This document shows positions 8,108 to 30,582 of a stretch of DNA of 64,000 bases, piece by piece. Location of the stretch: positions 1 to 64,000 of IMG/VR virus record IMGVR_UViG_3300032268_001605. One strand, 5' to 3'. A model generated the notes under the pieces. It was not told the origin of the DNA. It saw nothing but the letters and a program-made list of their open reading frames with translations, and searched no databases. Within the stretch, counting starts at the first letter, position 1; the number at the start of each line of letters is the position of its first letter. This DNA is from a virus. A program made the translations under genes and the position numbers.

Positions 8108-8777
8108 ACTCTAAATATTTTTTCAAATCTTCTGGTGTACCAATTGGATAATGTTGATTAAACATATATATTCCCACTTTATAGTTTTTTTGTATAAGAT
8201 AGCTGTATGATGGAGCAATATAGAATTCATCATTTGTTCTATCATTCTTCTCAAACATTTCATCACAAGATTCAAAAAAATATTTCGCTTTCCTCCAGTA
8301 ATGTAGGCCGTTTGTCGCAATGTTTGAAATCACTACCTTTTCTCTAACCTCTGTGACTAAATTACTTTCGTCCACTTTGACAAATGAGTTTTTTGGTGAA
8401 TTAGAAATGAAGCATCCTAAAACTCCGTCAAATTTTCTTGCAAAAGTCAAAAAAAGTTCTTGATTCCAATCTTTAATAATTTGATCACAATTAGTAATTA
8501 TGAGCTCATCCTCTAAATTGATTATTGATTTTGATAGATAAGCACTACATGCTGGACCTTCAGTTGTGTAGTCTATTTCAATTTTGTCAACGTTTTCTAA
8601 GGTTAGATTGTGTTCATTTCTGGTAATTATTATTAGTTTACAGTCACCCCTAAAGTTTTCAATGACGTGTTCTATCATGTTTCTACCATTCCAACTAATA
8701 AGCGGTTTGGGTTCCTGATATTCTGAATTTATGAATCTGCTTCCTCTTCCTGCAGCAGGTATTAAAATTTGTAACAT
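8094..8777 (-). CDS. Sugar-phosphate nucleotidyltransferase (NTP_transferase family)
   Basis: IPAAGRGSRF, PKPLI, NCDQ, EK, EFYIAP, GTPEDL. Confidence 0.88.
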   Translation of the reverse strand: MLQILIPAAGRGSRFINSEYQEPKPLISWNGRNMIEHVIENFRGDCKLIIITRNEHNLTLENVDKIEIDYTTEGPACSAYLSKSIINLEDELIITNCDQIIKDWNQELFLTFARKFDGVLGCFISNSPKNSFVKVDESNLVTEVREKVVISNIATNGLHYWRKAKYFFESCDEMFEKNDRTNDEFYIAPSYSYLIQKNYKVGIYMFNQHYPIGTPEDLKKYLEYENK

Positions 8778-8788
8778 TAATTTTTTAT

Positions 8789-9553: not shown

Positions 9554-9575
9554 ATTATTTATTTATTTTTATATA

Positions 9576-10361
9576 TTAAGACCAAGAGTTTCCATTCAGA
9601 TGTGTGACTAAAGATTCGTCATTCCATTTACCGTAGACAAAACAACCAAATCTTTCTAGTGCTAAATCTAAACCCATCTTAGAAATATAGAATTCCATCA
9701 ACTCATTTAATGGACCTTCAACAAACCCACCTTCATTTGATGTGTTGTACACAAATGTTTTCCACCAATCTTGAAAGACTGTTGTTTTACAAATATAAGG
9801 ATTATTGGACCATCTGAATGTCGATATGAGTGCAATACTTTTAGAGACATTTGAACTCCCTTCTATCAAATTGTTATATCTTATATTATTATTGTCAAAC
9901 TGATTAAATCTAATATAGTTTATGTTTGAATTATTAGATATCTCGTCAATTACTTCTTTCAAATCTATCTTTCTCTTAAAAATCCAATCATGTTCCCAAA
10001 AGATGTATAATTCTGTTTTAACTGAGTCTATTAAGTTGATGAAGTTTTTTGGTGCTGTAACGATTGGATCGTCTATCTCTGACTCATTCGTAAATATTTT
10101 CAAATTCTTGATATTACTCTCCAAATTCAGCAAATTTCTATGGTAGATATTATCAATTTCTCTACCTACTCTCTTATCGAATCCTATGTGTATGAAAACA
10201 TCTTCAGGATTTAAATTTGTTTTGAAAAAGAAGTCTTTCAACACAGACTCAATTAATTTTGTAGATGGGGTACTTGGAACTACGTTCTTGACACCCGCCC
10301 AAGTTCCCTGGCTTTCTGTTTTAATACAATGAGTTGTAATACAAAGTGTTATTTTAGACAT
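9576..10361 (-). CDS. GT-A fold (GT2-like) glycosyltransferase
   Basis: WEHDW (DxD-like), WSNNP, terminal HL.G.S. Confidence 0.6.
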   Translation of the reverse strand: MSKITLCITTHCIKTESQGTWAGVKNVVPSTPSTKLIESVLKDFFFKTNLNPEDVFIHIGFDKRVGREIDNIYHRNLLNLESNIKNLKIFTNESEIDDPIVTAPKNFINLIDSVKTELYIFWEHDWIFKRKIDLKEVIDEISNNSNINYIRFNQFDNNNIRYNNLIEGSSNVSKSIALISTFRWSNNPYICKTTVFQDWWKTFVYNTSNEGGFVEGPLNELMEFYISKMGLDLALERFGCFVYGKWNDESLVTHLNGNSWS

Positions 10362-11188
10362 TTTTTATTTATTTTTTTTAGAAGCATGTGAGCAATACTA
10401 CCCTCGAAAAATAGTTCTATTATCTCGAAACTAGTTAATATGTGGAAAATCTTTATAAACTCCGAATGTGAACCAAGACAAGTACTATAAAATAGATAAT
10501 TTGTTGTTTCTAAGACTTCAGAAGATTCAAAATATTTTTCTATTGGTAGTTCACTCAAACTATGATTAGCAATTACTAAATCAAATTTTTGTTTTTTAAC
10601 TTCGTTTAAGCTATCTGAATATAAAATTCGTTCTAATTGAGTTTCATCAAGATTCTTTTTCAGGAAAAATTCTTGTAGTCTAGACATACCCGGTATGTCA
10701 ATAATTGTGTAATTGTTAATATTTATGACTAACTTGAACAGTAACCTACAAACATTGCCATATCCTCCGCCAAACTCCAATATTCTCAAATCTTCAATTT
10801 CGTTGAATCTGAAATGTTTTATTAAAAATGTTAGATATATCAAATGGTTCGCTGTAACATAAGAAGTAATTCTGGGACTTCTCTCACTGATAACTTTTTT
10901 CTGATCGTCTGTGTATCCGACCAAAGAGTCTCCTATTGAAGCTAGTTGTTGGAATATTTCTGGTGAAATTAAATTACAATGATTCATAGCATGGTTAAGT
11001 ATCTCATTGTAGTTGTCTATTCTAGCAATACAAAAATGAAAATTTTGATCTGATTGAAATTTTTCCAATTCCTCTTCCGTAAAGTCAGGAAATTTTATGT
11101 CTTCAACCCAATAGTCGTAGTCGACTTTTTGTAATTTTTTTTTGTTTTTTTTATAGATTTCTCTCAGTAAATTGTTTTTTTCAATCAT
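10349..11188 (-). CDS. Putative sugar O-methyltransferase (class I SAM)
   Basis: ILEFGGGYG, IIDIP, FDLVIANHSLSE. Confidence 0.8.
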   Translation of the reverse strand: MIEKNNLLREIYKKNKKKLQKVDYDYWVEDIKFPDFTEEELEKFQSDQNFHFCIARIDNYNEILNHAMNHCNLISPEIFQQLASIGDSLVGYTDDQKKVISERSPRITSYVTANHLIYLTFLIKHFRFNEIEDLRILEFGGGYGNVCRLLFKLVININNYTIIDIPGMSRLQEFFLKKNLDETQLERILYSDSLNEVKKQKFDLVIANHSLSELPIEKYFESSEVLETTNYLFYSTCLGSHSEFIKIFHILTSFEIIELFFEGSIAHMLLKKINKKCLK

Positions 11189-12039
11189 TTTAAATTATTT
11201 TTTTTTGTAATAAAATTTTGCAATTTTTTTCTAAGTTCCGATTTAAAGTTTACAAACCATTCATTAACTTTTTGATTTAATAATCTTTTATCAACATTGC
11301 TACATTGATTTTTCACATCATTCCAATCTTTTGCGACTATGAAAGGGTGATCGCCATAAATTTTCTCAAAATAGTCAGTGCCGTCTTTCTCGAAGATCGA
11401 AACAGGTATTGAACCACACTCAAGTGCCTCATTTATTCTAAAACTATCTAATGATATCCACCCTCTGGGACAAAGTGTGAACCAACTTCTACTCAAAACT
11501 TCTGAATATTGAGTTAGATTCAAAGAATCAGGATCATTCCACATTCTTGTCAGATAAAAATAAGAGTTGGGTAAAACTTTGAAAGTATTCAACATTTCAT
11601 ATCTATCCGACTTTAACTGTCCCACAAAATTAACTTCAATAGTTTTATCTGTTTGATTTTTTTTAACACCACTTTGATACCCTAATGGTATTGTCATCAA
11701 ATTGAATTTTTTTGTATATTCTTCATTATAATAGTTTCTAATTATTTTTCTCGAAACGTCATAAAAGTCTATGTTTTGTTCAAAAGCCTCATCAGATAAA
11801 TGTAGAATAGAATAGTTTAAATTTAATTTATTATACTCTTGTATATAAGAAATTAAACTATTATTAGAGTCTTTCCCAACCGATACAATTATGACAGAAT
11901 TATTTTCGAAAGTTTGAAATCTATTTTCAAAATCATCGATATGAGTTATTTCAAATTTTGAAAAAATTTCTTCAATCCAATTTAATGAAAAATTCTTTTC
12001 ATATTGAGATTTAACACACCAAATCATATTTATTTTCAT
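11185..12039 (-). CDS. Exostosin-like (GT47) glycosyltransferase
   Basis: FVGQ, S.FTLCPRG, SFRINEALECGSIPV. Confidence 0.82.
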   Translation of the reverse strand: MKINMIWCVKSQYEKNFSLNWIEEIFSKFEITHIDDFENRFQTFENNSVIIVSVGKDSNNSLISYIQEYNKLNLNYSILHLSDEAFEQNIDFYDVSRKIIRNYYNEEYTKKFNLMTIPLGYQSGVKKNQTDKTIEVNFVGQLKSDRYEMLNTFKVLPNSYFYLTRMWNDPDSLNLTQYSEVLSRSWFTLCPRGWISLDSFRINEALECGSIPVSIFEKDGTDYFEKIYGDHPFIVAKDWNDVKNQCSNVDKRLLNQKVNEWFVNFKSELRKKLQNFITKKNNLK

Positions 12040-17446: not shown

Positions 17447-18100
17447 TTATTTTCTTTTTATAATTGATGTTGTTGACCCTCTTTTTATTTCAATTATTTC
17501 TATTGAAGATATTTGTTTTAAAATTTCTTCGAATTCAATTTTATTCAAATAATAGTCAGATCCTTGAGAAATGTCACCATTCTTCAAATCATTTAGAAGC
17601 CTAATTGTATTGTTAGTATCTGTTCTACCATAATTACATCCGTCGTAAAAATCCACGTTGGAAGTGTGAAGATCTTCTAATATATAAATTCCTCCATGTT
17701 TTAATTTATGAAATATAGTTTTTATCGTATTCTGTTGTTGAAACATAGTATGACCACCATCGTCAATAATTACATCAAATTCATCTGGCAAACTTAGTAA
17801 CTCAACAGATTTCTCTTGATTAACGACTAGTGTTGTAGTTTTTTTCGTATCGAAAAATATACCACGAGAGGAAAATTCACGTTTGCGCCACTCTTCAGTA
17901 TTTATGTCTACACCAAAGATTTTACCATTCGAAAAGTACTCTTCCCACATCTTCAATGATGCACCGGAGCTAATTCCTATTTCTAAAATCTTTATTTCTT
18001 TGTTTCGTAATTCACCTAAGACTTCCTCATACAAACCTAAATAATTATGATGAGTCGCTTTGTCTGTTTTGTACTTCATTCCGATTTCATGTAATGTCAT
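17447..18100 (-). CDS. Class I SAM-dependent (sugar) O-methyltransferase
   Basis: TDK...H.Y, LEIGI..GAS, GVDI, IIDDGGH, GGIYILEDLHTS. Confidence 0.88.
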   Translation of the reverse strand: MTLHEIGMKYKTDKATHHNYLGLYEEVLGELRNKEIKILEIGISSGASLKMWEEYFSNGKIFGVDINTEEWRKREFSSRGIFFDTKKTTTLVVNQEKSVELLSLPDEFDVIIDDGGHTMFQQQNTIKTIFHKLKHGGIYILEDLHTSNVDFYDGCNYGRTDTNNTIRLLNDLKNGDISQGSDYYLNKIEFEEILKQISSIEIIEIKRGSTTSIIKRK

Positions 18101-18118
18101 ATTTTATATAATTTTTTT

Positions 18119-18817
18119 TTAAAAATGTTTTATTATTTGTTTCCAACTTTCTTTTTCTAAATCGTCAGTTGGTTCTACTAACAGATAGGGACCGAAAACT
18201 ATATCAGTATGATTATAAGTTCTATAGTTCGAAGTATGTAAGTGTTTAGTAATTATCTTTCTACTTGGATTCTTTACATTATATCCAAGTTCGTGATAAA
18301 TAGCCACAATCCTATTGTCACATCCTGGTTTACCCATCAAGAAATTGCTTCTATCGTCAATTTTTATAGGAGTTTTGAATATCCAAGAATCCTGTGATAA
18401 CATACCCATAGTCCAGTTATTATCTCTATAAGGCCCATTAAAAAATCTCATGTACCATTGTTTATTCTCAGTGAATAAATCCCATCTCGTTAATGCTAAA
18501 AATTGATTTTCTAAGTTATAATTAACCAAGTTTCCTAGACTTTTATCGAAAATAATATCAGTATTACCAATAATACAAATCTCTTCTGGATAATTATTAT
18601 TACAATATTCAAATAAATACTTAAAAGTGGGTCTTTCTTTAAGATAAACAATCTCAATTTTTTCAGATTCGAAATCTAATTTTGAAATTTCGTCTGAAAT
18701 AAAAATTACTATTTTATCTATAGTTTCGCAATTTACGTTCTCTTTAATACAAGCTTTGTATTCAAAGTCTCTATTAGTATTACTTGATGTAAAATATTCA
18801 ATTAAAAGTATCATCAA
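18119..18817 (-). CDS. Hypothetical GT-A-like protein
   Basis: NTDIIF, ALTRW, SQDSWIF, GKPGCDN, HLH. Confidence 0.5.
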   Translation of the reverse strand: MMILLIEYFTSSNTNRDFEYKACIKENVNCETIDKIVIFISDEISKLDFESEKIEIVYLKERPTFKYLFEYCNNNYPEEICIIGNTDIIFDKSLGNLVNYNLENQFLALTRWDLFTENKQWYMRFFNGPYRDNNWTMGMLSQDSWIFKTPIKIDDRSNFLMGKPGCDNRIVAIYHELGYNVKNPSRKIITKHLHTSNYRTYNHTDIVFGPYLLVEPTDDLEKESWKQIIKHF

Positions 18818-18835
18818 TTTTAAGTCTCTTTATTC

Positions 18836-19795
18836 CTACTTATAAACAAATTTTTTTAATTGTTCATAAATATCTTCTTTTTGTTGCAAATAGTTAAATC
18901 TTATCAACTCAAAACCATTCACTTCACACCATTTATTTTTTATCTCATCTCTAACCTTCAATTTTTCGAACTCTTCCATACCACCAAACATCTCAACTGG
19001 CTTAAAATGTTGCATACCATCAAATTCAATACAGACATTAAAATCCGGTAAATAAAAATCAAATCTCAATTTAGATGATGAAATACAATCTTTTAAAGAT
19101 TTATTGTAAATATATTTTATTTCATTTCTATCAAAAAAATCAGCAATCAGTACCTCACCATACGACATCTGAGTTCTTTTATCAATTCCTAAAAAGTCGT
19201 TCCAATCTATCCATCCTTTGCCCACGTACAATTTTTCAGGTTTCTTTGTCATGCCTTTTGGTAAATCACGAAACTTTATTTTATACCATTGTTTTTGAAA
19301 TTTCAAATTTAAACTTCGTGAATATTCTCTAGCAATCTCAAAATCGACTAAGTTTTCTATTTGGTCAACTGAGTTATCTGTATCCAAAAAATGAACCCAA
19401 CCTTCCCATTCCTCCTTATAAACACTTCTCGGGTCGTATGGTATTTTTATGTCCAATTTAATAATGTCTTTGATTCTTCTAAAATAGTCAGATTTACTTA
19501 AGAAATTATATTGTCTAACTGCTTCTTTACATTCTTTATAAGAATAATATGTTCCATTATATTTTTTTTTATAGACTTCATCTCTCAAAAAGATAGACCA
19601 TCCTTCCCATATTTCTTTTGAGTAGAAGGCTGATGGATTATATGGTATATTTATACCATCTATGATGAAATTATTTGAAACATGAGAAAGATATTCATCC
19701 TTTTTACGGATATTATTTTCCCTCACATACCTCTTCAAGTCTTCATATTTTATGAATTTATCTCTATCTTTCACTACTTTTCTTTTGACCGACAT
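18836..19795 (-). CDS. Free-standing homing-endonuclease-like protein (W-x-G-W repeats plus Vsr/DUF559-like nuclease)
   Basis: Three P..P...Y...W.GW..FL repeats, then SYGE, RFDFYLP, IEFDGMQH, D..KN.W. Confidence 0.8.
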   Translation of the reverse strand: MSVKRKVVKDRDKFIKYEDLKRYVRENNIRKKDEYLSHVSNNFIIDGINIPYNPSAFYSKEIWEGWSIFLRDEVYKKKYNGTYYSYKECKEAVRQYNFLSKSDYFRRIKDIIKLDIKIPYDPRSVYKEEWEGWVHFLDTDNSVDQIENLVDFEIAREYSRSLNLKFQKQWYKIKFRDLPKGMTKKPEKLYVGKGWIDWNDFLGIDKRTQMSYGEVLIADFFDRNEIKYIYNKSLKDCISSSKLRFDFYLPDFNVCIEFDGMQHFKPVEMFGGMEEFEKLKVRDEIKNKWCEVNGFELIRFNYLQQKEDIYEQLKKFVYK

Positions 19796-19844
19796 ATCCC
19801 TACTTTTTATTTCTATATATTAAAAAGTATATAGTCTATATAAT

Positions 19845-19870
19845 AAAAAAGAGGATTAAAAATCCTCTTT
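19845..19870. terminator. Hairpin terminator after clp fragment 3
   Basis: aaagaggatt-aaa-aatcctcttt with A-run (T-run on minus strand). Confidence 0.7.
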
Positions 19871-19878
19871 ATCATAAC

Positions 19879-21063
19879 TTAATCTTCTTTTTTCTTTTTA
19901 GAAGTTACTTTTTTCTTTTTATCACTTTCTATTTTAGTTACATCATTTTCAGAATCATATGATATTTTAAATACTGTTCCAGTCGATGGACTTTCCAATA
20001 GTACATCAATTAAATTGTCGTCTATCCATTTTCTAATAGCTCTTTTCATTGGTCTTGCTCCATATTGTGGATCATATCCAACCTCTATTAGTTTTTCAAT
20101 CATTGTCTCATCGATTTCAGCGTTGAACCCCAATTCTTTTAGTCTATTGATTGATTTTTCCAATTCTAAAAATAAAATTTTACGAATATCATCTTTACTT
20201 AAATCATTAAAATAAATTATCTCTTCAATTCTATTTATGAACTCTGGTGCAAATTTCTTCTTCAATTCTTTTTCCAGAATCCCTTTTATTTGGTCTGTTC
20301 TGTCTTCAGTTTTATTTTTAGTAGCAAACCCTACACCAGTACCAAAATCCTTAACAACTCTTGTTCCGACATTTGAAGTCATTAGTATAATGCAATTCTT
20401 GAAAGATACTTTTCTACCATGAGTATCCGTCATGTGGCCATCATCAAATGCTTGTAAGAAAATATTATAAACATCCGAGTGAGCCTTTTCAACTTCATCC
20501 ATCAATAGTACACAATATGGTTTTCTTCTTATTACGTCAAGTAGATTACTATCATCATATCCAATATAACCGCTGGGCGAACCCAAAATCCTGTTTATCG
20601 AAATTTTTTCTGAATACTCAGACATATCAATTCTAATCATCGAATCCTCCGAATCGAAAAGATATTTTGCTAATTGTTTAGCTAATTCTGTATTATGTGA
20701 TAATATACCATTTGTGAAATATCTTTTTTTAGAGTTATCTACCAGTTGAAAGTCATACATATTTTCAACTCTATCCGTTTTGGTCACATCAATCACTATT
20801 GCGTAACCATCGTCTGTCTTGACCCTATCCCCAATTTCAAGATCCTTAACAAAAACCTCACTCATATCGTCATAGAATACAATATGATCGTCAGCACATT
20901 CTATTTCATATCCATTAGATAACTTTAAAGTCCAAACATCGTATGGAATAGTTTCATGTAAATATTTCAAATCCACAAAACCATCATCTGTTAAAATTTC
21001 ATATTCACTCAAATCATAAGTTTTGGTGAATTTTTTTTCTTCCTTTTTACTATAAACTTCCAT
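19879..21063 (-). CDS. clpC: ClpC-type ATPase fragment 3: C-intein (124 aa) plus remainder of AAA domain 2 (270 aa)
   Basis: Likely start MEVYSKK at 21063; intein blocks IECADDH, MYDF, NGILSHN then TELAK, RIDMSEY, LLMDEVEKAH, IILMTSN, PEFINRI, YGARP. Confidence 0.92.
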   Translation of the reverse strand: MEVYSKKEEKKFTKTYDLSEYEILTDDGFVDLKYLHETIPYDVWTLKLSNGYEIECADDHIVFYDDMSEVFVKDLEIGDRVKTDDGYAIVIDVTKTDRVENMYDFQLVDNSKKRYFTNGILSHNTELAKQLAKYLFDSEDSMIRIDMSEYSEKISINRILGSPSGYIGYDDSNLLDVIRRKPYCVLLMDEVEKAHSDVYNIFLQAFDDGHMTDTHGRKVSFKNCIILMTSNVGTRVVKDFGTGVGFATKNKTEDRTDQIKGILEKELKKKFAPEFINRIEEIIYFNDLSKDDIRKILFLELEKSINRLKELGFNAEIDETMIEKLIEVGYDPQYGARPMKRAIRKWIDDNLIDVLLESPSTGTVFKISYDSENDVTKIESDKKKKVTSKKKKED

Positions 21064-21086
21064 GTTATTTATATTTTTTGATTTTA

Positions 21087-22607
21087 TTATTCCTGCAATA
21101 GAAAGTTTATACATCTTTCTATTATTTTTTCTTTATTTTCAAATCCTTTATACCTGTACTCAGAATCCCATATTATCAAAACTTTATATCCTAATTCTTC
21201 AGCTAATTTTATCTTAATTTGATCTTTTAGCCAAATTTCTTTAGAAGTTATATTTTTTCTAAAAGGATGTGGATTATCATCTTCTTTGAATTTATCTGGA
21301 TTTGCATGGTACATATCACCGTTATATTCTATAATAAGTTTTTTATTTTCATCTACAAAATCATAAAAATAAAATCCTCCACTAGATTTAGGAATCTTGA
21401 ACTCACCACCATTCGTAGCATATTTAAAATCCCCTTTCAATCTATTTGAAATCTCGGTGAACATTTCTTGACTTATCTTTGAATAACCTATAAATATGTT
21501 ATCTTGATCTTTAAGTGAGTTTAACCACTTATCCGTTCGGTTATTAAACACCTCAATTCCTTTTTCATACCCAAATTTCTCTATACATTTTTCTTTACTG
21601 AATGTTGTCTGAGACTCTTTGACTTTTTTCTTAGAATCCTCTTCATTGTATCCTCTTTTTATCCAATAATCTAAATTAGAAGGCAGTAATCTACTTTTAG
21701 TATCTATGAATTTAGCAGCATGGCTTTGTCCTTTTGATATAATTGATTTTGCTTCTTCTTCTGTATGACCTTTAAGTGTCCAAAATTTAATATTTGATGG
21801 TGATAGACTAACTCTCTCTATTTGTTCTTCAGTATATCCTTTTTTTCTTAAAATTTCTTTATTTTTACCAGTTCTCTTACCTTTAAACTTTTTGGAATTT
21901 TCAGATTGTATTTCAAAGACTTTTTTGATCGAATCTTCTTCAGAATATCCTTTTCTCATCCAAAACTCTTTTGAAAATGCTCTTTTTACAGATTTCAGTT
22001 TGTTTTTGACTTTATTATATTCTTCTTCCGGTAAGAACGCAAACCATCTGTCATTTTTATTTCTAGTATTGTTCGAGTTACATTCATCATTAGAGCACTT
22101 TTTTATCAAATAAATAGGAGTATCTTGAATTTCAGATTTTTTTAAGATCAAATCTGATTCACAGAGTCTACAGTTTGGTTTCTCAATAGATTCAAATTTT
22201 ATTGTATTGAATAAGTATAAATTTGAATAGTCTTTATCATATTCATAGCTTTCAATTTTTGACTTCTCGTTATAGTTCAACAACTTTTCTTTAGAATTTT
22301 CGAAAATTTTTTCTGAATAATTTTTATATTCTATTTCAGAAAATCCCCTTTCGATCCAAAAGCTTAGTGAAAGTTTACTTGAAGAAGTAAAACCAAACTT
22401 AGATGGTAACCATCTTGTTAATCTTAAAAATGGAACATTAGAATCATCATTTATGAGCATCGAATAAATAGATATAATAGATGATTTTATTTTTTCATTA
22501 TCGAAATTTATGTTACTATAATCTTTTTTTAAAAAAACTATAAAATCATCTATTGTTGGAAATATATCTTTAGCAGGTATATTTTTTCTATTTATTGTTA
22601 AAGTCAT
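21087..22607 (-). CDS. Free-standing homing-endonuclease-like protein between clp fragments 2 and 3
   Basis: (F/Y)W..(K/R)GY.EE.. repeats, CxxC, C-terminal SKIS..F, YDF, IIEYNGD..H, IWLKD..K, IIWDSE (Vsr/DUF559-like). Confidence 0.8.
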   Translation of the reverse strand: MTLTINRKNIPAKDIFPTIDDFIVFLKKDYSNINFDNEKIKSSIISIYSMLINDDSNVPFLRLTRWLPSKFGFTSSSKLSLSFWIERGFSEIEYKNYSEKIFENSKEKLLNYNEKSKIESYEYDKDYSNLYLFNTIKFESIEKPNCRLCESDLILKKSEIQDTPIYLIKKCSNDECNSNNTRNKNDRWFAFLPEEEYNKVKNKLKSVKRAFSKEFWMRKGYSEEDSIKKVFEIQSENSKKFKGKRTGKNKEILRKKGYTEEQIERVSLSPSNIKFWTLKGHTEEEAKSIISKGQSHAAKFIDTKSRLLPSNLDYWIKRGYNEEDSKKKVKESQTTFSKEKCIEKFGYEKGIEVFNNRTDKWLNSLKDQDNIFIGYSKISQEMFTEISNRLKGDFKYATNGGEFKIPKSSGGFYFYDFVDENKKLIIEYNGDMYHANPDKFKEDDNPHPFRKNITSKEIWLKDQIKIKLAEELGYKVLIIWDSEYRYKGFENKEKIIERCINFLLQE

Positions 22608-22622
22608 ATCTAATCATACATT

Positions 22623-24218
22623 TTATTCGGCACCACCGGTGTCCGATAATGTATATATTAAATCTGAAATATTTACTTTTTCTACTTTTCCATTACTCTT
22701 ATTGCGAAGCGTTACAAATGAAGATTTACTTATACATTTTCCTGTTCCTGAATTTCCAATAAGCATCGCAACTAAACCAGGTTTATTCGGATCTTTCATA
22801 CCTACTCTTCCTCGCTGTATAGCCTTTACTACTTTCCTTACGGCTTCATCTTGCCCGATAACCTTTCCAGATAAGTTCTCAAACATCCTACTAAGTTTTT
22901 GATTTTCACCCTCACTAACCTTCTTTAAAGGTATACCACTCATCATAGATACAACTTCAGCTACTACTTCCTCAGAAACTACTTTCTTGTTGCCCTTTTG
23001 TTCTTCTTCCCATTTAAATCTAGCTTCATCTAAATTAGCAAGCAATTGTTTTTCAACATCTCTTAATTTTGCTGCTTCTTCATACTTTTGATTCCTTACA
23101 ACTTGAGTCTTTTTATCTTTAATTTCAAGTATTTTTTCCTCAATATCAAGAATCTCTTTCGGTACATTTACTTCAGAAATTTGTACTCTGGAACCAGATT
23201 CATCAAGAGCATCAATTGCTTTATCAGGTAAAAATCTATCTGGCAAATATCTACTTGTTAGTTTCACACATGCTTCAATTGCCTCTGGCGTATATTCTAC
23301 GTTGTGGTGAGACTCATATCTGTCTTTAATGTTAGTTAATATTTGTAAAGTATCTTCTTCGGTCGAGGGTTCAACAACTACCTTTTGGAATCTTCTCTCT
23401 AAGGCTCCATCTTTCTCAATATGTTTACGGTATTCGTCAAGTGTGGTAGCACCAATCATTTGAATTTCTCCTCTAGCCAATGCTGGTTTGATAATATTAG
23501 CAGCATCAAGAGAACCTGAAGCACCACCGGCTCCAATTATGGTATGAATCTCGTCAATGAATACAATTACATCAGGATTCTTCTCTAGTTCAGACATCAC
23601 TGCTTTGATTCTTTCTTCGAATTGACCACGATATTTAGTCCCAGCTACCATTGATGCCAAATCCAAAGAACAGATTCTTTTATTTAACAAATTTCTGGAA
23701 ACTTTTCTCTGTGTAATTTTTATAGCAAGAGATTCAGCAATACTTGATTTACCAGTATTGTGTGAGATGATATCATTTGAAATATAGGAATGTTCATCGG
23801 TTAAGACTTCTAAATCATATGTATCATCGATGTCGATAAATGATATAAATTCTACTTTAGATGACCCATCTGTTGTTTTAACCCAATCAGAATTCTTGAT
23901 ATTTTTAAGTCTTACCCACATATCACCATCTAACAACTCAATATTTTCGTTGATTTCATCGTCAGAATTCTTAGTGGTATCTATGAGAACTAAATGATCT
24001 TCTGATCCATTCAGAATTTTACCGTCGGATAATTCTAATTTGAATATTTTTTTGTTTAATTTTTTATAAACATCACCAATTTTTTGAAATCCACTAGGTG
24101 TAAGTATCTCGAATGTTCCCCCTTTCTCCTTAACATAGTTGAAAAAATCAACTATTCTTACTTTAGAAGGCTCTTGTAAATTGAACTCCAGATCTATATC
24201 AATTTTTTCTTCAATCAT
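22623..24218 (-). CDS. clpC: ClpC-type ATPase fragment 2: C-intein (154 aa), AAA1/middle domain (340 aa), N-intein (37 aa)
   Basis: GSEDH, TYDLEV, NDIISHN then TGKS, AGTKYRGQFEER, FIDEIH, GATT, ALERRFQ, PDKAID, UVR-like YEEAAKLRD, GQDEA, GNSGTGK then CISKSSFV. Confidence 0.93.
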   Translation of the reverse strand: MIEEKIDIDLEFNLQEPSKVRIVDFFNYVKEKGGTFEILTPSGFQKIGDVYKKLNKKIFKLELSDGKILNGSEDHLVLIDTTKNSDDEINENIELLDGDMWVRLKNIKNSDWVKTTDGSSKVEFISFIDIDDTYDLEVLTDEHSYISNDIISHNTGKSSIAESLAIKITQRKVSRNLLNKRICSLDLASMVAGTKYRGQFEERIKAVMSELEKNPDVIVFIDEIHTIIGAGGASGSLDAANIIKPALARGEIQMIGATTLDEYRKHIEKDGALERRFQKVVVEPSTEEDTLQILTNIKDRYESHHNVEYTPEAIEACVKLTSRYLPDRFLPDKAIDALDESGSRVQISEVNVPKEILDIEEKILEIKDKKTQVVRNQKYEEAAKLRDVEKQLLANLDEARFKWEEEQKGNKKVVSEEVVAEVVSMMSGIPLKKVSEGENQKLSRMFENLSGKVIGQDEAVRKVVKAIQRGRVGMKDPNKPGLVAMLIGNSGTGKCISKSSFVTLRNKSNGKVEKVNISDLIYTLSDTGGAE

Positions 24219-24325
24219 ATATCTATTTTTTAATGTTTTTAATTATATACTTTTCCACAATAAAGTTGGAAAAAAAGAACTATATTTGGTTCCAGAAATA
24301 TAATATATATAAATAAAAGTATTAC

Positions 24326-26179
24326 ATGCCATCAAAGTTAACAAATGGGGAATTTATAGAAAAAGTTAAATTAAAACACGGTGATAAATGGGATTACTCA
24401 AAAGTAGACTATACTGGATCTAAAAATAAAGTTATAATTATTTGTAAAGAACATGGTGAGTTTACACAAACAGCATCAGATCATCTAGCTGGTTGTGGTT
24501 GTCCAAATTGCGATCCAACTAAAAGACTGACTGCAGACGAATTCATAAAAAAATCAGTAGTCATGCACGGTGATAGGTGGGACTATTCAAGAGTTAAATA
24601 TGGTAAAAATAACTACGATTTAGTAGAAATTCTTTGTAAAGAACACGGAATATTTCAGCAAAGGCCTTGGGCACATTTAAGGGGTCAAGGTTGTCCAAAA
24701 TGTGTTAATAATACAATAATGACAACACGTGAATTTATTGAAAGGTGTATAGAAAAACATGGCGATAGGTGGGATTATTCAATAACAGAATATATTGGTA
24801 GAAGAAGGGAGGTATCTATTATATGTAAAAATCACGGTATATTCAAACAAGAAGCTCGAGTTCATTTGGAGGGATTTGGTTGTAAAATGTGTAATAATTC
24901 GAGAATGGAACACTATCTATCGGTCAAATTGAGGGATATGAATGAGCCGTTCGAAACAAATAAAAAATTCAAAGATTGTAAAAATAAAAATCCATTACCA
25001 TTCGATTTTTATTTACCTCTTAGAAATATGTTAATTGAGTGTGACGGTATACAACACCGAGAGTCAATAGAATATTTCGGTGGGCAGGAGAGATTAGAAT
25101 ATCAAAAAAATAATGATAAAATCAAAAACAAATGGTCAGAAGAAAGGGGAATACAATTAATAAGACTTGATAACAATTTAGAAATAGATAATTTTATCAA
25201 ATCTTTACAAACAAAAAAATTAGTATTTGATAAATCTGTTTTGAAGGATTTGAAAGAAAATAGAACAAACCCAAAAAAGAAAGCAGATGGATATTTGAGA
25301 GAAACTGACTTTAACTGGTTGAATAGTGGAGCGATTCATAAAGAAATCGACATGTATATTAGTGGACTTAGAGTAAATTTTTCTACCAACTTTACTTTCA
25401 AATCAGAAAATATCAATTGGATAGTAAACAATAATTATATAATTCTAATTGACAATTTTAAAGATTCTGAGATAAATAGAAACAAAAATTGGTTAGTTAT
25501 TTTAAAGAATGAATTGGAAAGTTTAAATAAAAATTTAATTGTAATTTATCCCGAAGATTGGATTTTAAATAAAGAAATAACCAAAAGTAGACTGAGAAAT
25601 ATACTTAATTTGAACCAAATTAAAATTGGAGCAAGAGAATGTCAAATAATAATACCCCAGAATAAATCAGTTTCTAAATTTTTAATTGATAATCATATTC
25701 AAGGGCACGTTAATGGAAGTATAAAAATTGCATTGACATATAATGATGAAATAGTTAGCCTAATGACGTTCGGTAAACTTAGAAGAAATTTAGGAAATAC
25801 ATCTAAATTAGATTCCTATGAACTACTAAGATTTTGCAATAAGAAAAACTACTCTGTTATTGGGTCAGCAAGTAAATTAATGAGTTTCTTTAAGAAACAA
25901 TATTCCCCAAAATACATACTTTCGTATGCTGATAGATGTTGGACAAGTATTAATAAAAATATTTATAAAGAATTAGGTATGGATTTGGTTAGTAAAACAC
26001 CTCCATCTTATTCTTATCTAGTCGGAGAAAAAAAATATGATAGATTCAGATACAGAAAAGATAAATTGATAGAATTTGGATATGACAAAGATAAATGGAC
26101 AGAAAGAAGTATATGTTCTTCTAATTTAGTATTTAAAATATTCGATGCTGGTTGCTTAAAATATGAAATGAATTTGTAA
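24326..26179 (+). CDS. Free-standing homing-endonuclease-like protein (Zn-finger repeats, two nuclease-like domains, GNAT-like tail), antisense to clp
   Basis: Three C..HG.F.Q....HL.G.GC..C repeats, LPFDFYLP, IECDG.QH, NHIQG, MTFG, YELLRFC, SYAD. Confidence 0.8.
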   Translation: MPSKLTNGEFIEKVKLKHGDKWDYSKVDYTGSKNKVIIICKEHGEFTQTASDHLAGCGCPNCDPTKRLTADEFIKKSVVMHGDRWDYSRVKYGKNNYDLVEILCKEHGIFQQRPWAHLRGQGCPKCVNNTIMTTREFIERCIEKHGDRWDYSITEYIGRRREVSIICKNHGIFKQEARVHLEGFGCKMCNNSRMEHYLSVKLRDMNEPFETNKKFKDCKNKNPLPFDFYLPLRNMLIECDGIQHRESIEYFGGQERLEYQKNNDKIKNKWSEERGIQLIRLDNNLEIDNFIKSLQTKKLVFDKSVLKDLKENRTNPKKKADGYLRETDFNWLNSGAIHKEIDMYISGLRVNFSTNFTFKSENINWIVNNNYIILIDNFKDSEINRNKNWLVILKNELESLNKNLIVIYPEDWILNKEITKSRLRNILNLNQIKIGARECQIIIPQNKSVSKFLIDNHIQGHVNGSIKIALTYNDEIVSLMTFGKLRRNLGNTSKLDSYELLRFCNKKNYSVIGSASKLMSFFKKQYSPKYILSYADRCWTSINKNIYKELGMDLVSKTPPSYSYLVGEKKYDRFRYRKDKLIEFGYDKDKWTERSICSSNLVFKIFDAGCLKYEMNL

Positions 26180-26217
26180 AAAAAAAGAGGTGTAGATTAA
26201 TCTACATCTCTTTTTTT
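26180..26217. terminator. Bidirectional terminator between convergent endonuclease genes
   Basis: A-run agaggtgtaga-ttaa-tctacatctct T-run. Confidence 0.75.
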
Positions 26218-28038
26218 ATACATAAATTTAATCGATCCACAATCATATATTCTACATATACCCAACTTATTACATATTTCATATTCACTTAGACTTTTAT
26301 CAAATCCCATTTTTAAAAAAACATCTTTCCTATATAAAAATCTATTTTTTCTATATGCACCAATGATATGATAATAGGATGGTTTTGAATCATCAAAATA
26401 ATTCATCCCAATTTTACTATACATACTATCTTGATTCGACCACATTTTATCAGCATATGATATAACTCTATTTGGATTATAAATATCTAAAAAATATTTA
26501 AAAAGCCTAGATGCTGCACCAACAACAACATAATTCAACTTGTTACAGAACCTTAATAATTCATAAGAATTCTTTTCAGATTTTTGACCTAAATTTTTTC
26601 TAAGTTTTCCGAATGTCATTAGACTAATAAGTTCATTATTATAATATAGACCTAATTTTATGGAAGATCCCAAATTTCCTTGTATGTGATTTTTTATTAA
26701 AAATTGACTGACTATCTTAGTATCTCTTATTTCTCTAATTTCACATTTTCTAGCATAAACTTTTTTAGACAAATACAACATTGATAATATCCTCGACTCA
26801 ACTATTTCTCTTTTATATATCCATTGATCCTCAAATACTTGAATTAATTTAAATCCATTTAATTTAAATTTATTATTCATATTTAAATGATGGTTTTTAT
26901 CAACATTTATATTTGATCCACTAAAAATACCTATGAAATTTATTCCCAATTTAATATCTGGTAAAAATATATCATATCTATATTCCTCAATCTCAAAATC
27001 GATTATTATATTATTTTTATAAATATTTTTTATAAAAATAATAAAGTTATCTTTTGCATCTAAATATGACTTTATATTAAACTCACTCTTTTGAATATTA
27101 TTTATAGTCTGATCGTATTTAACTTTTTCCAAAAAAGTATAAAATTTTTTTATACTTTTTTCATAATCATCAAATTTTATTCTAAACAAATTTACTCCAT
27201 TTTTTTCACACCAAGTATTTTTGATAAAATCATTTCTCACTACTTTATCAAAATATTCATCACCCCCGAATTTATCAACTATTTCATAATGATGCCTACC
27301 ATCATATTCTAAACATATATTATATTTAGGTAAATAAAAATCAAATGGTAGTTTTCTACCACCATCACCAACACAATTTTCAAATTTATACTCTCTTATA
27401 AATTTTATATTTAATGAAGTTAAACATTTAGCTATCATCATTTCACCCTTGCTAAAATTACATAAATTACATCCATGTCCATTTAAATGATCTTTAGGGG
27501 ATTGAAAAAAAGACCCATGTTTACTACAAATTATTTCTACTTTAGTTCGATTATTTTTATAATCAACATTTGAATAACCATACATATTATTATGTATTTT
27601 ATTCGATTCATTAATGAATTCAATATTATTTTTTCTTTTTACTCCAGCACAAGATGAGCAAGATTGTCCTAATAAATGATTCGATGGCAAGATATTAAAT
27701 GGTCCATGATATTTACATATCACCTCAATTTTTTTTGATGAATTAATATAATTAACTTTACTATAATCAAACTTATTACCATGCTTTTCTATAGCAAGAT
27801 TAATGAAAATCTCATTATTATATTTTACACCACCATTACAAGAAGGACATCCAACTTTTCTAACATGTGCATCAGGTCTAACAAAAAAAGAACCGTGTTC
27901 TTTACAAATTATTTTAACTTTTTCAATTGAATTTATATATTCAACTTCCGAATAATCATATTTATATCCATGTCTTTTTAAAGCCTTGTATATAAATTTT
28001 TCTCTTAAAGAATCTTTATTTTTAACCGGATTTCTCAT
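26197..28038 (-). CDS. Free-standing homing-endonuclease-like protein, same architecture as 24326..26179
   Basis: Three C..HG.F Zn repeats, LPFDFYLP, LEYDG.HH, FEDQW, ARKC, NHIQG, YELLRFC, ISYAD, YDCG. Confidence 0.8.
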   Translation of the reverse strand: MRNPVKNKDSLREKFIYKALKRHGYKYDYSEVEYINSIEKVKIICKEHGSFFVRPDAHVRKVGCPSCNGGVKYNNEIFINLAIEKHGNKFDYSKVNYINSSKKIEVICKYHGPFNILPSNHLLGQSCSSCAGVKRKNNIEFINESNKIHNNMYGYSNVDYKNNRTKVEIICSKHGSFFQSPKDHLNGHGCNLCNFSKGEMMIAKCLTSLNIKFIREYKFENCVGDGGRKLPFDFYLPKYNICLEYDGRHHYEIVDKFGGDEYFDKVVRNDFIKNTWCEKNGVNLFRIKFDDYEKSIKKFYTFLEKVKYDQTINNIQKSEFNIKSYLDAKDNFIIFIKNIYKNNIIIDFEIEEYRYDIFLPDIKLGINFIGIFSGSNINVDKNHHLNMNNKFKLNGFKLIQVFEDQWIYKREIVESRILSMLYLSKKVYARKCEIREIRDTKIVSQFLIKNHIQGNLGSSIKLGLYYNNELISLMTFGKLRKNLGQKSEKNSYELLRFCNKLNYVVVGAASRLFKYFLDIYNPNRVISYADKMWSNQDSMYSKIGMNYFDDSKPSYYHIIGAYRKNRFLYRKDVFLKMGFDKSLSEYEICNKLGICRIYDCGSIKFMYKKRDVD

Positions 28039-28052
28039 ATAATCTATATATT

Positions 28053-28093
28053 AAAAAAAATAACCCTATTTTTAATATAGGGTTATTTTTTTT
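28053..28093 (-). terminator. Intrinsic terminator directly after clp fragment 1
   Basis: aaaaaaaataaccctat / atagggttatttttttt inverted repeat. Confidence 0.8.
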
Positions 28094-28446
28094 CAAGTTG
28101 TTATTATTTTATGTGATTCTAAATTTGATGTTTTCCTAACCTCTATAAGAGTTTCAGGGGTTACACAACCTGGTTCGCCAATCAGAATCGGATTATTCTT
28201 CTTTTTTCTAGCTAGAATTTGTGAAACTCTAAGTATTTCTTTGTCTCTACCAACTACTGGATCCAGTTTGCCTTCTTCAGCAAGTTTAGTTAAATCTCGA
28301 CTAAAGGAGTCTAATACAGGCGTTTTTGATTTCGGATCGGGGTTCTTCCTACTACCTTTATATTTCTCAGAGTCTTGGTCATCATCCTCGAAAGCCATCT
28401 TTACATCGATAAGTTCTTTACCTAATAATTCTTTTGATGTATCCAT
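28093..28446 (-). CDS. clpC: ClpC-type ATPase fragment 1: N-extein (93 aa, no Clp-N domain) plus N-intein (24 aa)
   Basis: [33 protein letters not shown] then [11 protein letters not shown] and stop. Confidence 0.92.
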
Positions 28447-28536
28447 TTTAAATATTTTTGTGTTTTAGATTATATAAATTTTTGGGGAGATTGTTTTCAA
28501 AAAAAGAGAGTTGATGTGAATCAACTCCCATTTCAA

Positions 28537-28812
28537 TTAGTTGTTTACCTTTTGATTCAAAGTTGCCCCAGGCTTGAATTTTGCAACTGTTTTTGAAGGA
28601 ACTCTAACTTCATCCCCAGTCTTAGGGTTTCTTGCGATTCTTTCTGCTCTTTTTGATGTTTCCCAACTACCAAAACCAACCAAGCTCACTTTTTCACCCT
28701 TAGCCAGAGTTGACTCAATTACCGAAATAATCGCATCAATTGTTTCGGTTGATTTCGTTTTAGTAAGACCAGTGATAGTAGCTACTTCACTGACTAAATC
28801 TGATTTATTCAT
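28537..28812 (-). CDS. hup: HU family DNA-binding protein
   Basis: MNKSDL, L.GFG, R..RNPKTG, FKPG. Confidence 0.95.
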   Translation of the reverse strand: MNKSDLVSEVATITGLTKTKSTETIDAIISVIESTLAKGEKVSLVGFGSWETSKRAERIARNPKTGDEVRVPSKTVAKFKPGATLNQKVNN

Positions 28813-28967
28813 TTTTTAAATTTAAATTTTTATTTTTGAAAATTTTACACTTTCATATTAAGTATTATATTCTTTATAATATAAAGAGTTTATGAAAGTT
28901 TAGTAAAATTTAAAATTTTTTATTTTAAAATCTCTTACTTCACAGTTTTCGCACCGAAGAAAAATAT

Positions 28968-29297
28968 CTATTCATCAGAATCTATTAATAATTTTCCAAG
29001 TAAAATATCTCTGTAATGTGATTTATCAGCTTTTGTAATAGTAGAATCTAAAAATTTAACTTCAAAAAAATTTTCAAACCTAGCAACATTTTTATATATC
29101 TTGAATCCTTTGTAATTAACAAGGTCTAGACACTCTTTGTCAACTACATAAAATTCTAGTTCCTTGTTCATCTTGGTGAAAACGATATGTTGAAGACGTT
29201 CAAAAAAACTTAGATGCCCTTTTTCGAACAAGAAGGAAGTTCCATGTTTAGAAAAATATTCTATTTGTTTATCATTTATGTAAATATGTTTATTCAT
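28968..29297 (-). CDS. Hypothetical protein with C-terminal RDxxLxxLL tag
   Basis: 109-aa ORF ending HYRDILLGKLL. Confidence 0.6.
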   Translation of the reverse strand: MNKHIYINDKQIEYFSKHGTSFLFEKGHLSFFERLQHIVFTKMNKELEFYVVDKECLDLVNYKGFKIYKNVARFENFFEVKFLDSTITKADKSHYRDILLGKLLIDSDE

Positions 29298-29420
29298 TTT
29301 TCTTTTCTTCGTTTAAAAAATAAAAAATAATACAAAGTAAAAACCAAAACCAGTAAAGATTATCGAACTGATAAAATAAGTCTACTAAAAAAAGTATTAA
29401 AAAATAAAATGATATAGCTT

Positions 29421-29888
29421 TCACAAGTTCTGATAAGTAATGTATTTGTATTCAAATTCACCATTTGAATTGATTTCCACATTTGATTCAATCCAATCAC
29501 TTCCCAACTCAGGAAAAAAAGTATCTCCCTCAAAATCTTTATCGATTAGTGTTAATTCAATCTTTTTAGCATGTGGCAAAAACATATTATACATCTCACC
29601 ACCACCAATTACAAACAAATTACTTTGTTGATATATTTCTAACATATCATATATGTTATTATAAATTAAACAATTATCTGCCTTAAAATCTCTGTTCTTG
29701 GTTAATATAATATTCAATCTTCCTGGAAGTGCCTTACCTATTGATTCATAAGTCTTTCTACCCATTACTATTGGATTTCCAGTAGTCAACGATTTAAACC
29801 TTTTCAAGTCTTCTGGTAAGTACCACAATAATTTCCCATCACCACCGATGACTCTATTTTTACTACAAGCTGCTATTAGTGTTATCAT
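29421..29888 (-). CDS. folA: Dihydrofolate reductase
   Basis: LIAA, VIG, W.LPEDL..FK, MGRKTYESI, LPGR.N, IGGG, GDTFFP. Confidence 0.96.
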   Translation of the reverse strand: MITLIAACSKNRVIGGDGKLLWYLPEDLKRFKSLTTGNPIVMGRKTYESIGKALPGRLNIILTKNRDFKADNCLIYNNIYDMLEIYQQSNLFVIGGGEMYNMFLPHAKKIELTLIDKDFEGDTFFPELGSDWIESNVEINSNGEFEYKYITYQNL

Positions 29889-30582
29889 TATCTAAAATTT
29901 CATCTATTATATTGTCTCTTTTTACATGTGAGAACATCTCTGCCGGATCATAACCCCATAAAATACAAGCCTCTACTTCATCAATTTCCCAATCATATAT
30001 CACCTGTCCACCCTTTAAGTGGTATTCACCACAGTTATCACCAATGCACTCATCAGCGAACCTAACCTTCAAAGTCAAATCTGGGAATATTTCTGACAAT
30101 CTTTTGATTACTGGAAGGGGTGTAGACCAAGCAGTTTGGAAGAAAATCTCACCATCTTCTATGTAAGATCCTGAAGCACCCCATTTTGTACCCCAATTAT
30201 CAATTGCCCAATTGTACCAGTTTTTATAACCATAGTTTATTTTATTCTGATAACATATCATACCAACTTCTAAAATTTTATCATAATCTTCTTTTTTAGA
30301 AAAGTAATCGATTAAACCTTCAATGGTATGAATACCTAAGTTTACAGGCCAGTTTCTTGAAAGTATTTCATCAAGATATTTACTATCACCAGTTTCTTGG
30401 TATAAAACAATAGCAAATCCTATATCAGAATCTGTAGAGGCATCTATTCTGAGAGAAGGTGGCATAGGTACTATCTTTTCAAAATCTATGACTTTTCCAC
30501 CATCTGAAATATGTGAGTATAATTTCTCTACTTCTTGAGTATTGCCTTCAATACTTAATTTATTTATAACCCAATTTGGCAT
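29863..30582 (-). CDS. YubB/DUF1281-like ferredoxin-fold protein
   Basis: MPNW..N, DFEKIVPMP, WYNW...NWGTKW, FQTAW..P. Confidence 0.8.
   Translation of the reverse strand: MPNWVINKLSIEGNTQEVEKLYSHISDGGKVIDFEKIVPMPPSLRIDASTDSDIGFAIVLYQETGDSKYLDEILSRNWPVNLGIHTIEGLIDYFSKKEDYDKILEVGMICYQNKINYGYKNWYNWAIDNWGTKWGASGSYIEDGEIFFQTAWSTPLPVIKRLSEIFPDLTLKVRFADECIGDNCGEYHLKGGQVIYDWEIDEVEACILWGYDPAEMFSHVKRDNIIDEILDNDNTNSSL

Follow-up and report, generated by a model that had tools for sequence, protein, structure and literature searches.

How is a ClpC-type AAA+ ATPase made from a gene that lies in three separate open reading frames (ORFs), with both breaks inside Walker A loops? The question is raised by a locus in a 64,000-nucleotide stretch of viral DNA (positions 1 to 64,000 of IMG/VR virus record IMGVR_UViG_3300032268_001605; this whole stretch is called the window below), in which three minus-strand ORFs between 19879 and 28446 encode consecutive parts of one such protein. 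The answer that we favor, with a probability of about 0.85, is that this is the fractured gene of a ClpC-type AAA+ unfoldase from a large uncultured phage, in which each Walker A loop is interrupted by an atypically split class-1 intein with endonuclease genes between its halves, and that the products are trans-spliced.

A ClpC-type gene in three pieces

Re-reading of the DNA bore out the preliminary description of the locus as three minus-strand ORFs, including its coordinates and junctions. Piece 1 (28093-28446, 117 residues) ends in NPILIGEPG, followed by a 24-residue tail and a TGA stop. Piece 2 (22623-24218, 531 residues) starts with 154 residues that end in DIISHN, continues with TGKSSIAESL, and closes with GNSGTGK, a Cys plus 36 further residues, and a TAA stop. 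Piece 3 (19879-21114, 411 residues) starts with a C-terminal intein part ending in NGILSHN, followed by TELAKQLAKYLF (TELAK). The parts, in the order in which the protein would read, are as follows (IntN and IntC are the N- and C-terminal halves of inteins 1 and 2):

28168-28446, minus strand: extein 1, 93 residues; ends in GEPG, the first half of the AAA1 Walker A loop; aligns to the intact phage homologue L001 and to PHROG 4871 positions 154-223
28096-28167, minus strand: IntN1, 24 residues; Cys1, block A only; TGA stop at 28093-28095
23757-24218, minus strand: IntC1, 154 residues; block B (GSEDH), blocks F and G, SHN before Thr+1
22737-23756, minus strand: extein 2, 340 residues; TGKS, AAA1 body, AAA lid, UVR-type middle motif, and the start of AAA2 as far as GNSGTGK
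22626-22736, minus strand: IntN2, 37 residues; Cys1; TAA stop at 22623-22625; aligns to the N-terminus of the contiguous intein of locus L081
20692-21114, minus strand: IntC2, 141 residues from the ATG at 21114 or 124 residues from the ATG at 21063; block B (CADDH), GILSHN before Thr+1
19879-20691, minus strand: extein 3, 270 residues plus stop; TELAK, AAA2 body, D2-small domain

The three exteins (93 + 340 + 270) add up to 703 residues, which agrees with the size of about 703 proposed before, and they contain no frameshift and no internal stop. A megablast of positions 19000-29000 against phage records gave no match; the closest matches among phage records were two uncultured-phage records of 635 and 642 kb. 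The one that was read, L001, encodes an uninterrupted ClpC-type protein of 701 residues, and exteins 1, 2, and 3 fall consecutively on its gene, at 7767-8000, 8004-9020, and 9021-9776. They likewise fall consecutively on PHROG 4871 ('ATP-dependent protease'), at 154-223, 225-510, and 510-759 of its 764 positions. Identity of the exteins to intact homologues is 58-73%, with extein 2 at 73% to L001. The intact gene reads GEPGVGKS at the first site and GPTGVGKTQLAKELAKYLF at the second, so that the breaks map to GEPG/VGKS and GPTGVGK/TQLAK (here and below a slash marks the junction). Both breaks thus lie inside P-loops of the intact homologue, and the claim that removing the inteins rebuilds both Walker A loops stands.

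The domain content is that of a ClpC-type Hsp100. Pfam found AAA, AAA_lid_9, and UVR in extein 2, and AAA_2 (E 4e-48) and ClpB_D2-small (E 1e-17) in extein 3, so that two AAA+ modules, an AAA lid, a UVR-type middle motif, and a D2-small domain are all present, as in class I unfoldases of the ClpC/Hsp100 type. Unlike them, the window protein has no detected Clp_N domain (piece 1 gave no Pfam family at E ≤ 0.1), its extein 1 has only 93 residues, and its gene is in three pieces; the N-terminus of the intact 701-residue homologue is as short as extein 1. Many relatives of these fragments are simply labeled 'ClpC' by the Joint Genome Institute (JGI). The same virus record holds, outside the window, a ClpP gene (G000:C1:108735-109262, minus strand; Pfam CLP_protease, E 1e-70), which counts in favor of the reading given above. 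The record has 139 kb and is about 20% complete by CheckV; piece 2 of the window is also recorded on a contig of 346 kb. The anatomy of the gene and its homology are established by these alignments.

One detail of the preliminary description holds conditionally, namely a second C-part of 124 residues. This is the length if piece 3 starts at the internal ATG at 21063, and not if it starts at the first ATG, 21114, from which the C-part has 141 residues. The first ATG lies 28 nucleotides inside the preceding gene. The shorter start is favored because the C-part of the nearest relative, L008, has 127 residues.

Intein halves and their predicted pairing

The halves of each intein lie in separate ORFs: each N-part is followed by a stop, and each C-part has a start of its own. 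Both inteins are split after block A, into 24 + 154 residues (intein 1) and 37 + 124 or 141 residues (intein 2). Because block B falls inside the C-parts, the N-parts hold block A only, which makes the split 'atypical'. Identity between the two inteins is 27%.

The canonical residues named in the preliminary description (Cys1, a terminal His-Asn, and Thr at +1) are all present, and they proved invariant in family alignments, with +1 being Thr or Cys. Cys1 was found in all 11 sequences of the IntN1 family alignment (A5), in which I8, K12, S14, and H19 are also invariant, in all 95 first pieces from a database search (described below) whose tail has exactly 24 residues, and in 13/13 IntN2 sequences. 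Those 95 first pieces all carry Thr6, Ile8, and His19 as well. For the C-parts, family alignments of 11 sequences each were built from related loci (A2 for IntC1, A3 for IntC2). Invariant positions are S72, H75, S152, H153, and N154 in IntC1, and H77, S139, H140, N141, and T142 in the IntC2 family; the block B His is accordingly constant in both (H75 in A2, H77 in A3), and the aligned stretch of the VidaL intein reads CAFNH. Thr follows intein 1 in 54/54 database proteins, and the +1 residue is Cys or Thr in all 11 related loci that carry intein 1 at the same site.

Searches of the PDB pointed the same way. As single sequences, IntC1 matched the gp41-1 intein (E 1e-4) and VidaL (2.7e-4), and IntC2 matched VidaL (5e-5) and the consensus atypical intein CatC (5.6e-3). 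All seven PDB matches of profile A2 were inteins or Hint-type chains (VidaL 1.2e-10, gp41-1 5.6e-10), as were the seven of profile A3 (best CatC, 2.3e-7). The preliminary description had proposed a Hint-domain search of the halves; both C-part profiles match only intein or Hint chains in the PDB. Apart from the Thr position of block B, every expectation at the level of sequence was borne out, which supports the assignment of both inserts as atypically split class-1 inteins; that they splice is inferred.

Structure prediction, also proposed before, was applied to pair 1 as a complex folding test with alignment A2 for IntC1 and alignment A5 for IntN1 plus six extein residues. IntN1 with IntC1 passed: the interaction prediction score from aligned errors (ipSAE) was 0.89, 0.87, and 0.89 over the runs, against 0.56 for the best control, with contact agreement of at least 84% and a predicted local distance difference test score (pLDDT) of the partner of at least 78. 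In calibration, the mark set for this test was reached by 58 of 80 solved complexes and by 2 of 110 mismatched pairs. The modeled interface comprises residues 69-76 (block B) and 152-155 (SHN/T) of IntC1, which adjoin the Cys of the partner. The models thus support binding of IntN1 to IntC1. For pair 2, the contiguous intein of locus L081 stands in; both halves of pair 2 align to it. Its model has a pLDDT of 77.5, and all 25 of its PDB matches at E ≤ 0.001 are inteins.

On this reading, three polypeptides would be made, IntN1 would dock on IntC1 and IntN2 on IntC2, and two Hint domains would be completed. Each Hint domain would carry out an N-S acyl shift at Cys1, trans-esterification to Thr+1, Asn cyclization, and an O-N shift. 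The two ligations would join 93 + 340 + 270 residues into a 703-residue ATPase with both P-loops rebuilt. Since both P-loops would be rebuilt only by splicing, ATPase activity should depend on both ligations.

Related loci and the genes in the gaps

The preliminary description had suggested comparing the locus with related phages. A scan of IMG/VR yielded 80 loci with ClpC homologues, which together with two phage records make 82 loci; the same split inteins recur in them, and the layout of the window is not unique. Site 1 is uninterrupted in 66 of the 82 loci and interrupted in 16. Intein 1 stands at GEPG/x (site 1a) in 11 of these, of which L019 and L020 look like duplicates. Each of the 11 has a stop exactly 24 residues into the intein, followed by a separate ORF with 133-146 residues ahead of (C/T)GK. 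With L019 and L020 taken as one locus, the extension formed by the C-part has 133 residues in nine of ten distinct site-1a loci; among the 54 database proteins it has 152-161 residues in 49. The gap between the halves measures 480-834 nucleotides in six of the 11 loci and 1682-1711 nucleotides in the other five; the shorter gaps cannot hold an endonuclease gene like the ORFs of 382-390 residues in L019 and L045, because they are too short for them. N- and C-parts are in the same frame in L026 and L032 (gaps of 498 and 480 nucleotides) and in different frames in L018 and L033 (503 and 481 nucleotides).

Site 2 is uninterrupted in 71 of the 79 loci that hold exteins 2 and 3 (including L060, which shows only a 1-nucleotide offset), and a split intein with an N-part of 31-36 residues occupies it in seven. 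In L081 (8997-9551) intein 2 is present at the same GK/T site as one open mini-intein of 173 residues without an endonuclease; its N-terminus aligns with the N-parts (IntN2 plus 11 others) and the rest of it with the C-parts. The full layout of three ORFs and two split inteins was found in L023, L037, and L045, i.e., in three of the 82 loci.

Database proteins extend this picture. A search with the IntC1 region matched 54 proteins, all of which start with a C-part of 139-174 residues ending in SHN/TGK; none of the 54 has extein 1 in front, so that no contiguous intein 1 was found among them. Thirteen, including that of the window, end in GK/C plus 28-37 residues and are thus two-ended middle pieces; 38 run through an intact second P-loop, which corresponds to a two-piece form, and three are truncated. 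The search with piece 1 gave 385 clusters at E ≤ 0.001. Among the 120 of these that were listed, 117 end in GEPG/C plus a short tail, and the tail, counted from its initial Cys, has exactly 24 residues in 95. Phage contigs carrying relatives of the first piece reach 629 kb. The conservation of the split layout is thereby established.

Selection was gauged by Nei-Gojobori ratios of nonsynonymous to synonymous substitution rates (dN/dS) for nine IMG/VR loci whose halves are free of gaps. The three pairs that are most alike gave dN/dS of 0.042-0.124 for the C-part and 0.088-0.174 for the 24-residue N-part, most other pairs being saturated at synonymous sites. These low values indicate that both halves are kept by selection while split. 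As far as sequence comparison can tell, the split state is old and selected.

The intein-2 family is not confined to site 2. Members of the intein-2 family stand at GVGK/T of AAA1 (site 1b), three residues past site 1a, in L037 (8082-8648, with 9621-11819), L042 (6295-8375), and L059 (7779-8345). This position of AAA1 is equivalent to site 2 of AAA2, and the gap in L042 holds the same family of endonuclease. The presence of the intein-2 family and its endonuclease in the other AAA module suggests ectopic spread between paralogous P-loops. L037 has split inteins of one family in both P-loops, which raises the question of cross-reaction. At site 1 of L052 (4129-10253) and L056 lies an unrelated contiguous intein of about 360 residues (GVGK/A...THN/T), whose first residue is Ala; the split intein 2 is present in L052 as well, as is an insert of about 390 residues inside extein 3, so that the ClpC gene of L052 is interrupted three times. 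In L009 (9000-9110) extein 2 ends in an IntN2 piece, and no homologue of piece 3 was found in the 40-kb record (G001); since this record is only 6% complete, the missing piece proves nothing, and it may lie far away or have been lost. Many uninterrupted site-1 alleles (for example in L047, L049, L053-L055, and L058) read GEPG/CGKT, with Cys where the +1 residue sits in intein-bearing alleles, and others read GEPG/VGK. This Cys may have been left behind by a lost intein, or it may mark a pre-adapted homing site.

Polymorphism at site 2 was found within the population sampled. A contig from run X2, a sister sample, connects 20691 directly with 22737; the shorter side matches over 81 letters, and further letters may lie between the two sides. 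Position 20691 opens the Thr+1 codon of extein 3, and position 22737 closes the Lys codon of extein 2. The contig therefore lacks exactly the 2045 nucleotides of IntN2, the endonuclease gene, and IntC2; we read it as an intein-less allele that exists beside the occupied one. No intein-less joint at site 1 was among the joints listed. The other joints listed, with sides of 20-32 nucleotides, were regarded as cross-matches between the two AAA modules or between repeats. Comparison of protein P0013 with piece 2 of the window gave IntN2 identical at 37/37 residues, extein 2 at 81%, and IntC1 at 68%, a mosaic that suggests that the intein-2 cassette was exchanged recently.

The gap genes and the hairpins beside them are:

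26197-28038, minus strand: endonuclease gene 1a, 613 residues; three treble-clef zinc-finger repeats, Vsr/DUF559-like nuclease core, PHROG 3339 C-terminal domain
24326-26179, plus strand: endonuclease gene 1b, 617 residues; convergent with 1a, same architecture
21087-22607, minus strand: endonuclease gene 2, 506 residues; start 15 nucleotides past the piece 2 stop; Vsr-like C-terminal fold
28053-28093, minus strand: terminator-like hairpin with U-run directly after the piece 1 stop; -18 kcal/mol, z -5.5, 0/200 shuffles as good
26180-26217, both strands: bidirectional terminator-like hairpin between the convergent genes 1a and 1b; z -6.3 (minus), -7.6 (plus)
19848-19870, minus strand: terminator-like hairpin after piece 3; from the consensus scan, z -4.2

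Gap 1 spans 3.9 kb. Its two ORFs are 37% identical over 611 residues (E 5e-127), and both match PHROG 559 (1a at E 4e-127, 1b at E 6e-107) and the PHROGs 3339 and 9084 ('homing endonuclease'); 1a also gave a weak match to Pfam DUF4379. Each carries an FDFYLP...E.DG..H nuclease core and a common C-terminal domain. Similar modules occur at five other places in the record (18836-19795 on the minus strand, and at about 43.7, 50.0, 71.3-72.2, and 73.7 kb); an ORF of 319 residues just downstream of piece 3 is among their carriers, and the genome is rich in this endonuclease family.

Gene 2 has orthologues in the same gap of L008, L023, L037, L044, L045, and L052, and in the site-1b gap of L042. Sequence tests of its product gave weak matches to Pfam DUF559 and MTES_1575 and a match to PHROG 22677, whose function is not annotated. 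Its family profile (A4) found nothing meaningful in the PDB, a profile of the nuclease core (A7) gave chance matches only, and hhalign of A4 against A7 was weak (probability 8.9%, E 0.0037). It was the fold search that decided: with the last 170 residues modeled at pLDDT 85, the best PDB match was Vsr (1cw0_A, E 7e-4), and the catalytic domain of I-Bth0305I came eleventh (TM-score 0.64 on the target). The gap-2 ORF is thus predicted to carry a Vsr-like nuclease domain. Free-standing genes of the homing endonuclease kind therefore lie between the intein halves in both gaps, as PHROG matches and predicted fold indicate. Their products would be the engine of mobility, cutting intein-less alleles and thereby spreading the cassette of intein and endonuclease.

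Piece 1 is taken to be a transcription unit of its own because of the hairpin with U-run after its stop, a hairpin that was not among the terminators of the consensus scan. Piece 2, endonuclease gene 2, and piece 3 are packed as if co-transcribed. A TATATAAT box lies 24 nucleotides upstream of the ATG of IntC1 (piece 2) and another before piece 1, and this box is not enriched (16 matches against 13.6 expected); AAACT-N14-17-ATATA has nine matches in the window, none of them before a clp piece, and a sigma-70 scan found 63 sites against 60.6 expected. Upstream of piece 1, ORFs at 28537-28812 and 29421-29888 (both minus strand) look by eye like an HU/IHF-type DNA-binding protein and a dihydrofolate reductase.

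Weighing the alternatives, and what the arrangement means

Several observations weigh against the reading of trans-spliced split inteins. Where block B should have Thr, intein 1 has Ser and intein 2 has Ala. Pfam Intein_splicing (PF14890) scored under its cut-off of 35.8 bits on both C-parts (17.2 and 14.7 in the genome scan, 19.4 with hmmscan). IntN1 alone matched nothing among PDB sequences, and the sole match of IntN2, actinohivin, was read as chance; the N-parts are too short for sequence search. The pass of pair 1 may partly reflect likeness to solved split inteins, one control having reached 0.56, and the L081 model has its own weak points (pLDDT below 50 at residues 168-180, and TM-scores of 0.3-0.5 to solved inteins). 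The start codon of piece 3 is ambiguous between 21114 and 21063, gap 1 departs from the published layout of such loci by its two endonuclease genes, of which one is on the opposite strand, and no RNA run holding the stretch was listed.

Four other accounts were weighed. If the intein halves no longer spliced and served only as docking domains, the three polypeptides would be held together non-covalently, for which the accessible text on a fragmented ribonucleotide reductase held by interaction domains of mobile-element origin offers a precedent (PMC3045599). The folding test speaks for docking and not for chemistry, and the Ser or Ala in block B would fit as well. However, Cys1, the block B His, the His-Asn, and the Thr or Cys at +1 would be unneeded for docking and are nevertheless invariant across diverged families, and a Hint domain of about 180 residues would be left inside each Walker A loop (GEPG/TGKS, GTGK/T), which we judge incompatible with a P-loop; docking alone is very improbable. 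A shade less probable still is that endonuclease insertions wrecked the gene and left three functionless, decaying remnants. Four selfish endonuclease genes in 9.6 kb, with further copies in the record, might be expected of such a ruin. A decaying gene would hardly have kept 703 extein residues open at 58-73% identity to intact homologues, intein halves with low dN/dS, the same split in 385 first-piece clusters (117 of the 120 listed carry the tail) and 54 second-piece proteins, a start for each piece, and terminators for pieces 1 and 3.

Removal at the level of nucleic acid, either by DNA excision or by a group I or II intron that encloses the endonuclease gene, with translation of each intein or of the whole gene in one piece, ranks lower again in our estimate. 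It would accord with the occurrence of Vsr-like endonucleases in group I introns, mentioned in the accessible text of PMC2677866, and with the shared frame of the N- and C-parts in L026 and L032. Yet L018 and L033 have their two parts in different frames, the C-parts have an ATG of their own and N-terminal extensions of conserved length, and gap 1 contains a strong terminator hairpin after piece 1 and a gene on the opposite strand. Rfam found no intron family in 18000-30000 at E ≤ 1; its hairpin-type chance matches include spurious ones that coincide with the terminator-like hairpin at 26180-26217. The sole DNA joint found excises the whole intein exactly and thus represents an intein-less allele, not an intron-less intein.

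Mis-assembly, which the preliminary description had named as a way in which it could fail, would have brought together pieces and endonuclease genes from different genomes, as might happen with a metagenome source and repeated endonuclease modules in the region. A 43.6-kb Logan contig from run X1, made with an independent assembler, covers 19800-28500 with zero differences; this contig is not independent evidence, since the window probably comes from the sample of X1. A different study supplied run X5, whose contigs bridge 20887-21445 and 22606-22784, and contigs of run X2 bridge 27452-28330, 25638-26213, and 23750-24123. The contigs of X5 and X2 thus span the junctions of piece 1 with its neighboring endonuclease gene, of piece 2 with endonuclease gene 2, and of the latter with piece 3. 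With the same gene order in L023, L037, and L045, mis-assembly is barely credible.

The reading of a fractured, trans-spliced ClpC gene can be taken a step further, to a natural and widespread three-piece ligation in which two mutually orthogonal Cys1/Thr+1 inteins, with N-parts of 24 and 28-37 residues, assemble ClpC by tandem trans-splicing, so that splicing is an obligatory switch of the ATPase. This wider proposal seems to us somewhat better than an even bet. Support for orthogonality of the pairs is indirect and comes from their stable co-occurrence in 13 middle-piece clusters and in L023 and L045, from which the two pairs presumably do not cross-react. As piece 1 appears to be a separate transcription unit, the switch could be timed during infection.

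The separate components have precedents. AceL-TerL and GOS-TerL are atypically split inteins. So are VidaL (6vgv), 'Cat' (6dsl), and PolB16 OarG, in which, as here, a short N-fragment with block A is paired with a long C-fragment holding blocks B, F, and G. The N-fragment of PolB16 OarG has 15 residues in the accessible text (PMC10189870), against 24 and 37 in the window. The window inteins differ from VidaL, Cat, and PolB16 in host gene and insertion sites, in combining Cys1 with Thr+1, in being two in one protein, and in being known from sequence alone. The two sites themselves are of a favored kind, since inteins favor P-loops as insertion sites, according to the accessible text of PMC4760082.

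Fractured genes that combine split inteins with free-standing homing endonuclease genes were described by Dassa et al. 2009 (PMC2677866). The accessible text of that paper reports 26 fractured loci plus gp41-7, broken 'in two', and half of the endonucleases are Vsr-like. The likeness extends to the gp41-7 locus, which has no endonuclease, as is the case for several relatives here, and to one 'Terminase' intein that is split after motif N1 and has a C-part of 122 residues. Compared with what is accessible there, the window gene falls into three parts at two split inteins that look unrelated (27% identity), both inteins have the split after block A that was exceptional in that set, and the host protein is a Clp/Hsp100 unfoldase whereas those hosts were enzymes of DNA metabolism. 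The layout of two parts on one strand is not found either: gap 1 holds an endonuclease gene on the plus strand, and there are three parts. These departures in strand and number of parts are differences of layout, not of mechanism. Regarding the endonucleases, the C-terminal domain of the gap-2 protein is predicted to fold like I-Bth0305I and other Vsr-like (EDxHD) enzymes, as far as these are described in the accessible text of PMC3239194 and by PDB 3r3p and 1cw0, and the gap-1 ORFs are likened to Vsr-like homing endonucleases by their FDFYLP...E.DG..H core and by the PHROG homing-endonuclease families. The gap ORFs differ from those enzymes in their N-terminal DNA-binding modules and are predicted nucleases.

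The components are therefore known, and the combination differs in four respects: one gene broken twice, a Clp/Hsp100 host, Cys1 with Thr+1, and two convergent endonuclease genes in one gap. No description of a natural protein that two split inteins assemble out of three genes, nor of a Clp ATPase with a split intein, was found in the literature searched, with subscription papers and the supplementary tables of Dassa 2009 and Novikova 2016 outside the search. The three-piece arrangement is real, common in metagenomic phage sequence, and apparently unreported.

Traceless protein ligation relies mainly on split inteins. According to the accessible texts of PMC10189870 and PMC12707363, ligating three segments calls for two pairs without cross-reaction, and N-fragments short enough for peptide synthesis are especially valued. 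The phage unfoldase appears to use N-fragments of 24 and 37 residues, both with Thr+1, and each half is represented by dozens of diverged natural alleles. For phage biology, the arrangement extends the idea of the fractured gene to a protein-quality-control enzyme, to one gene broken twice, and to large phages. It also places at one pair of sites all stages of a proposed life cycle of such elements: empty, occupied by a contiguous mini-intein, split with no endonuclease, and split with one or two of them.

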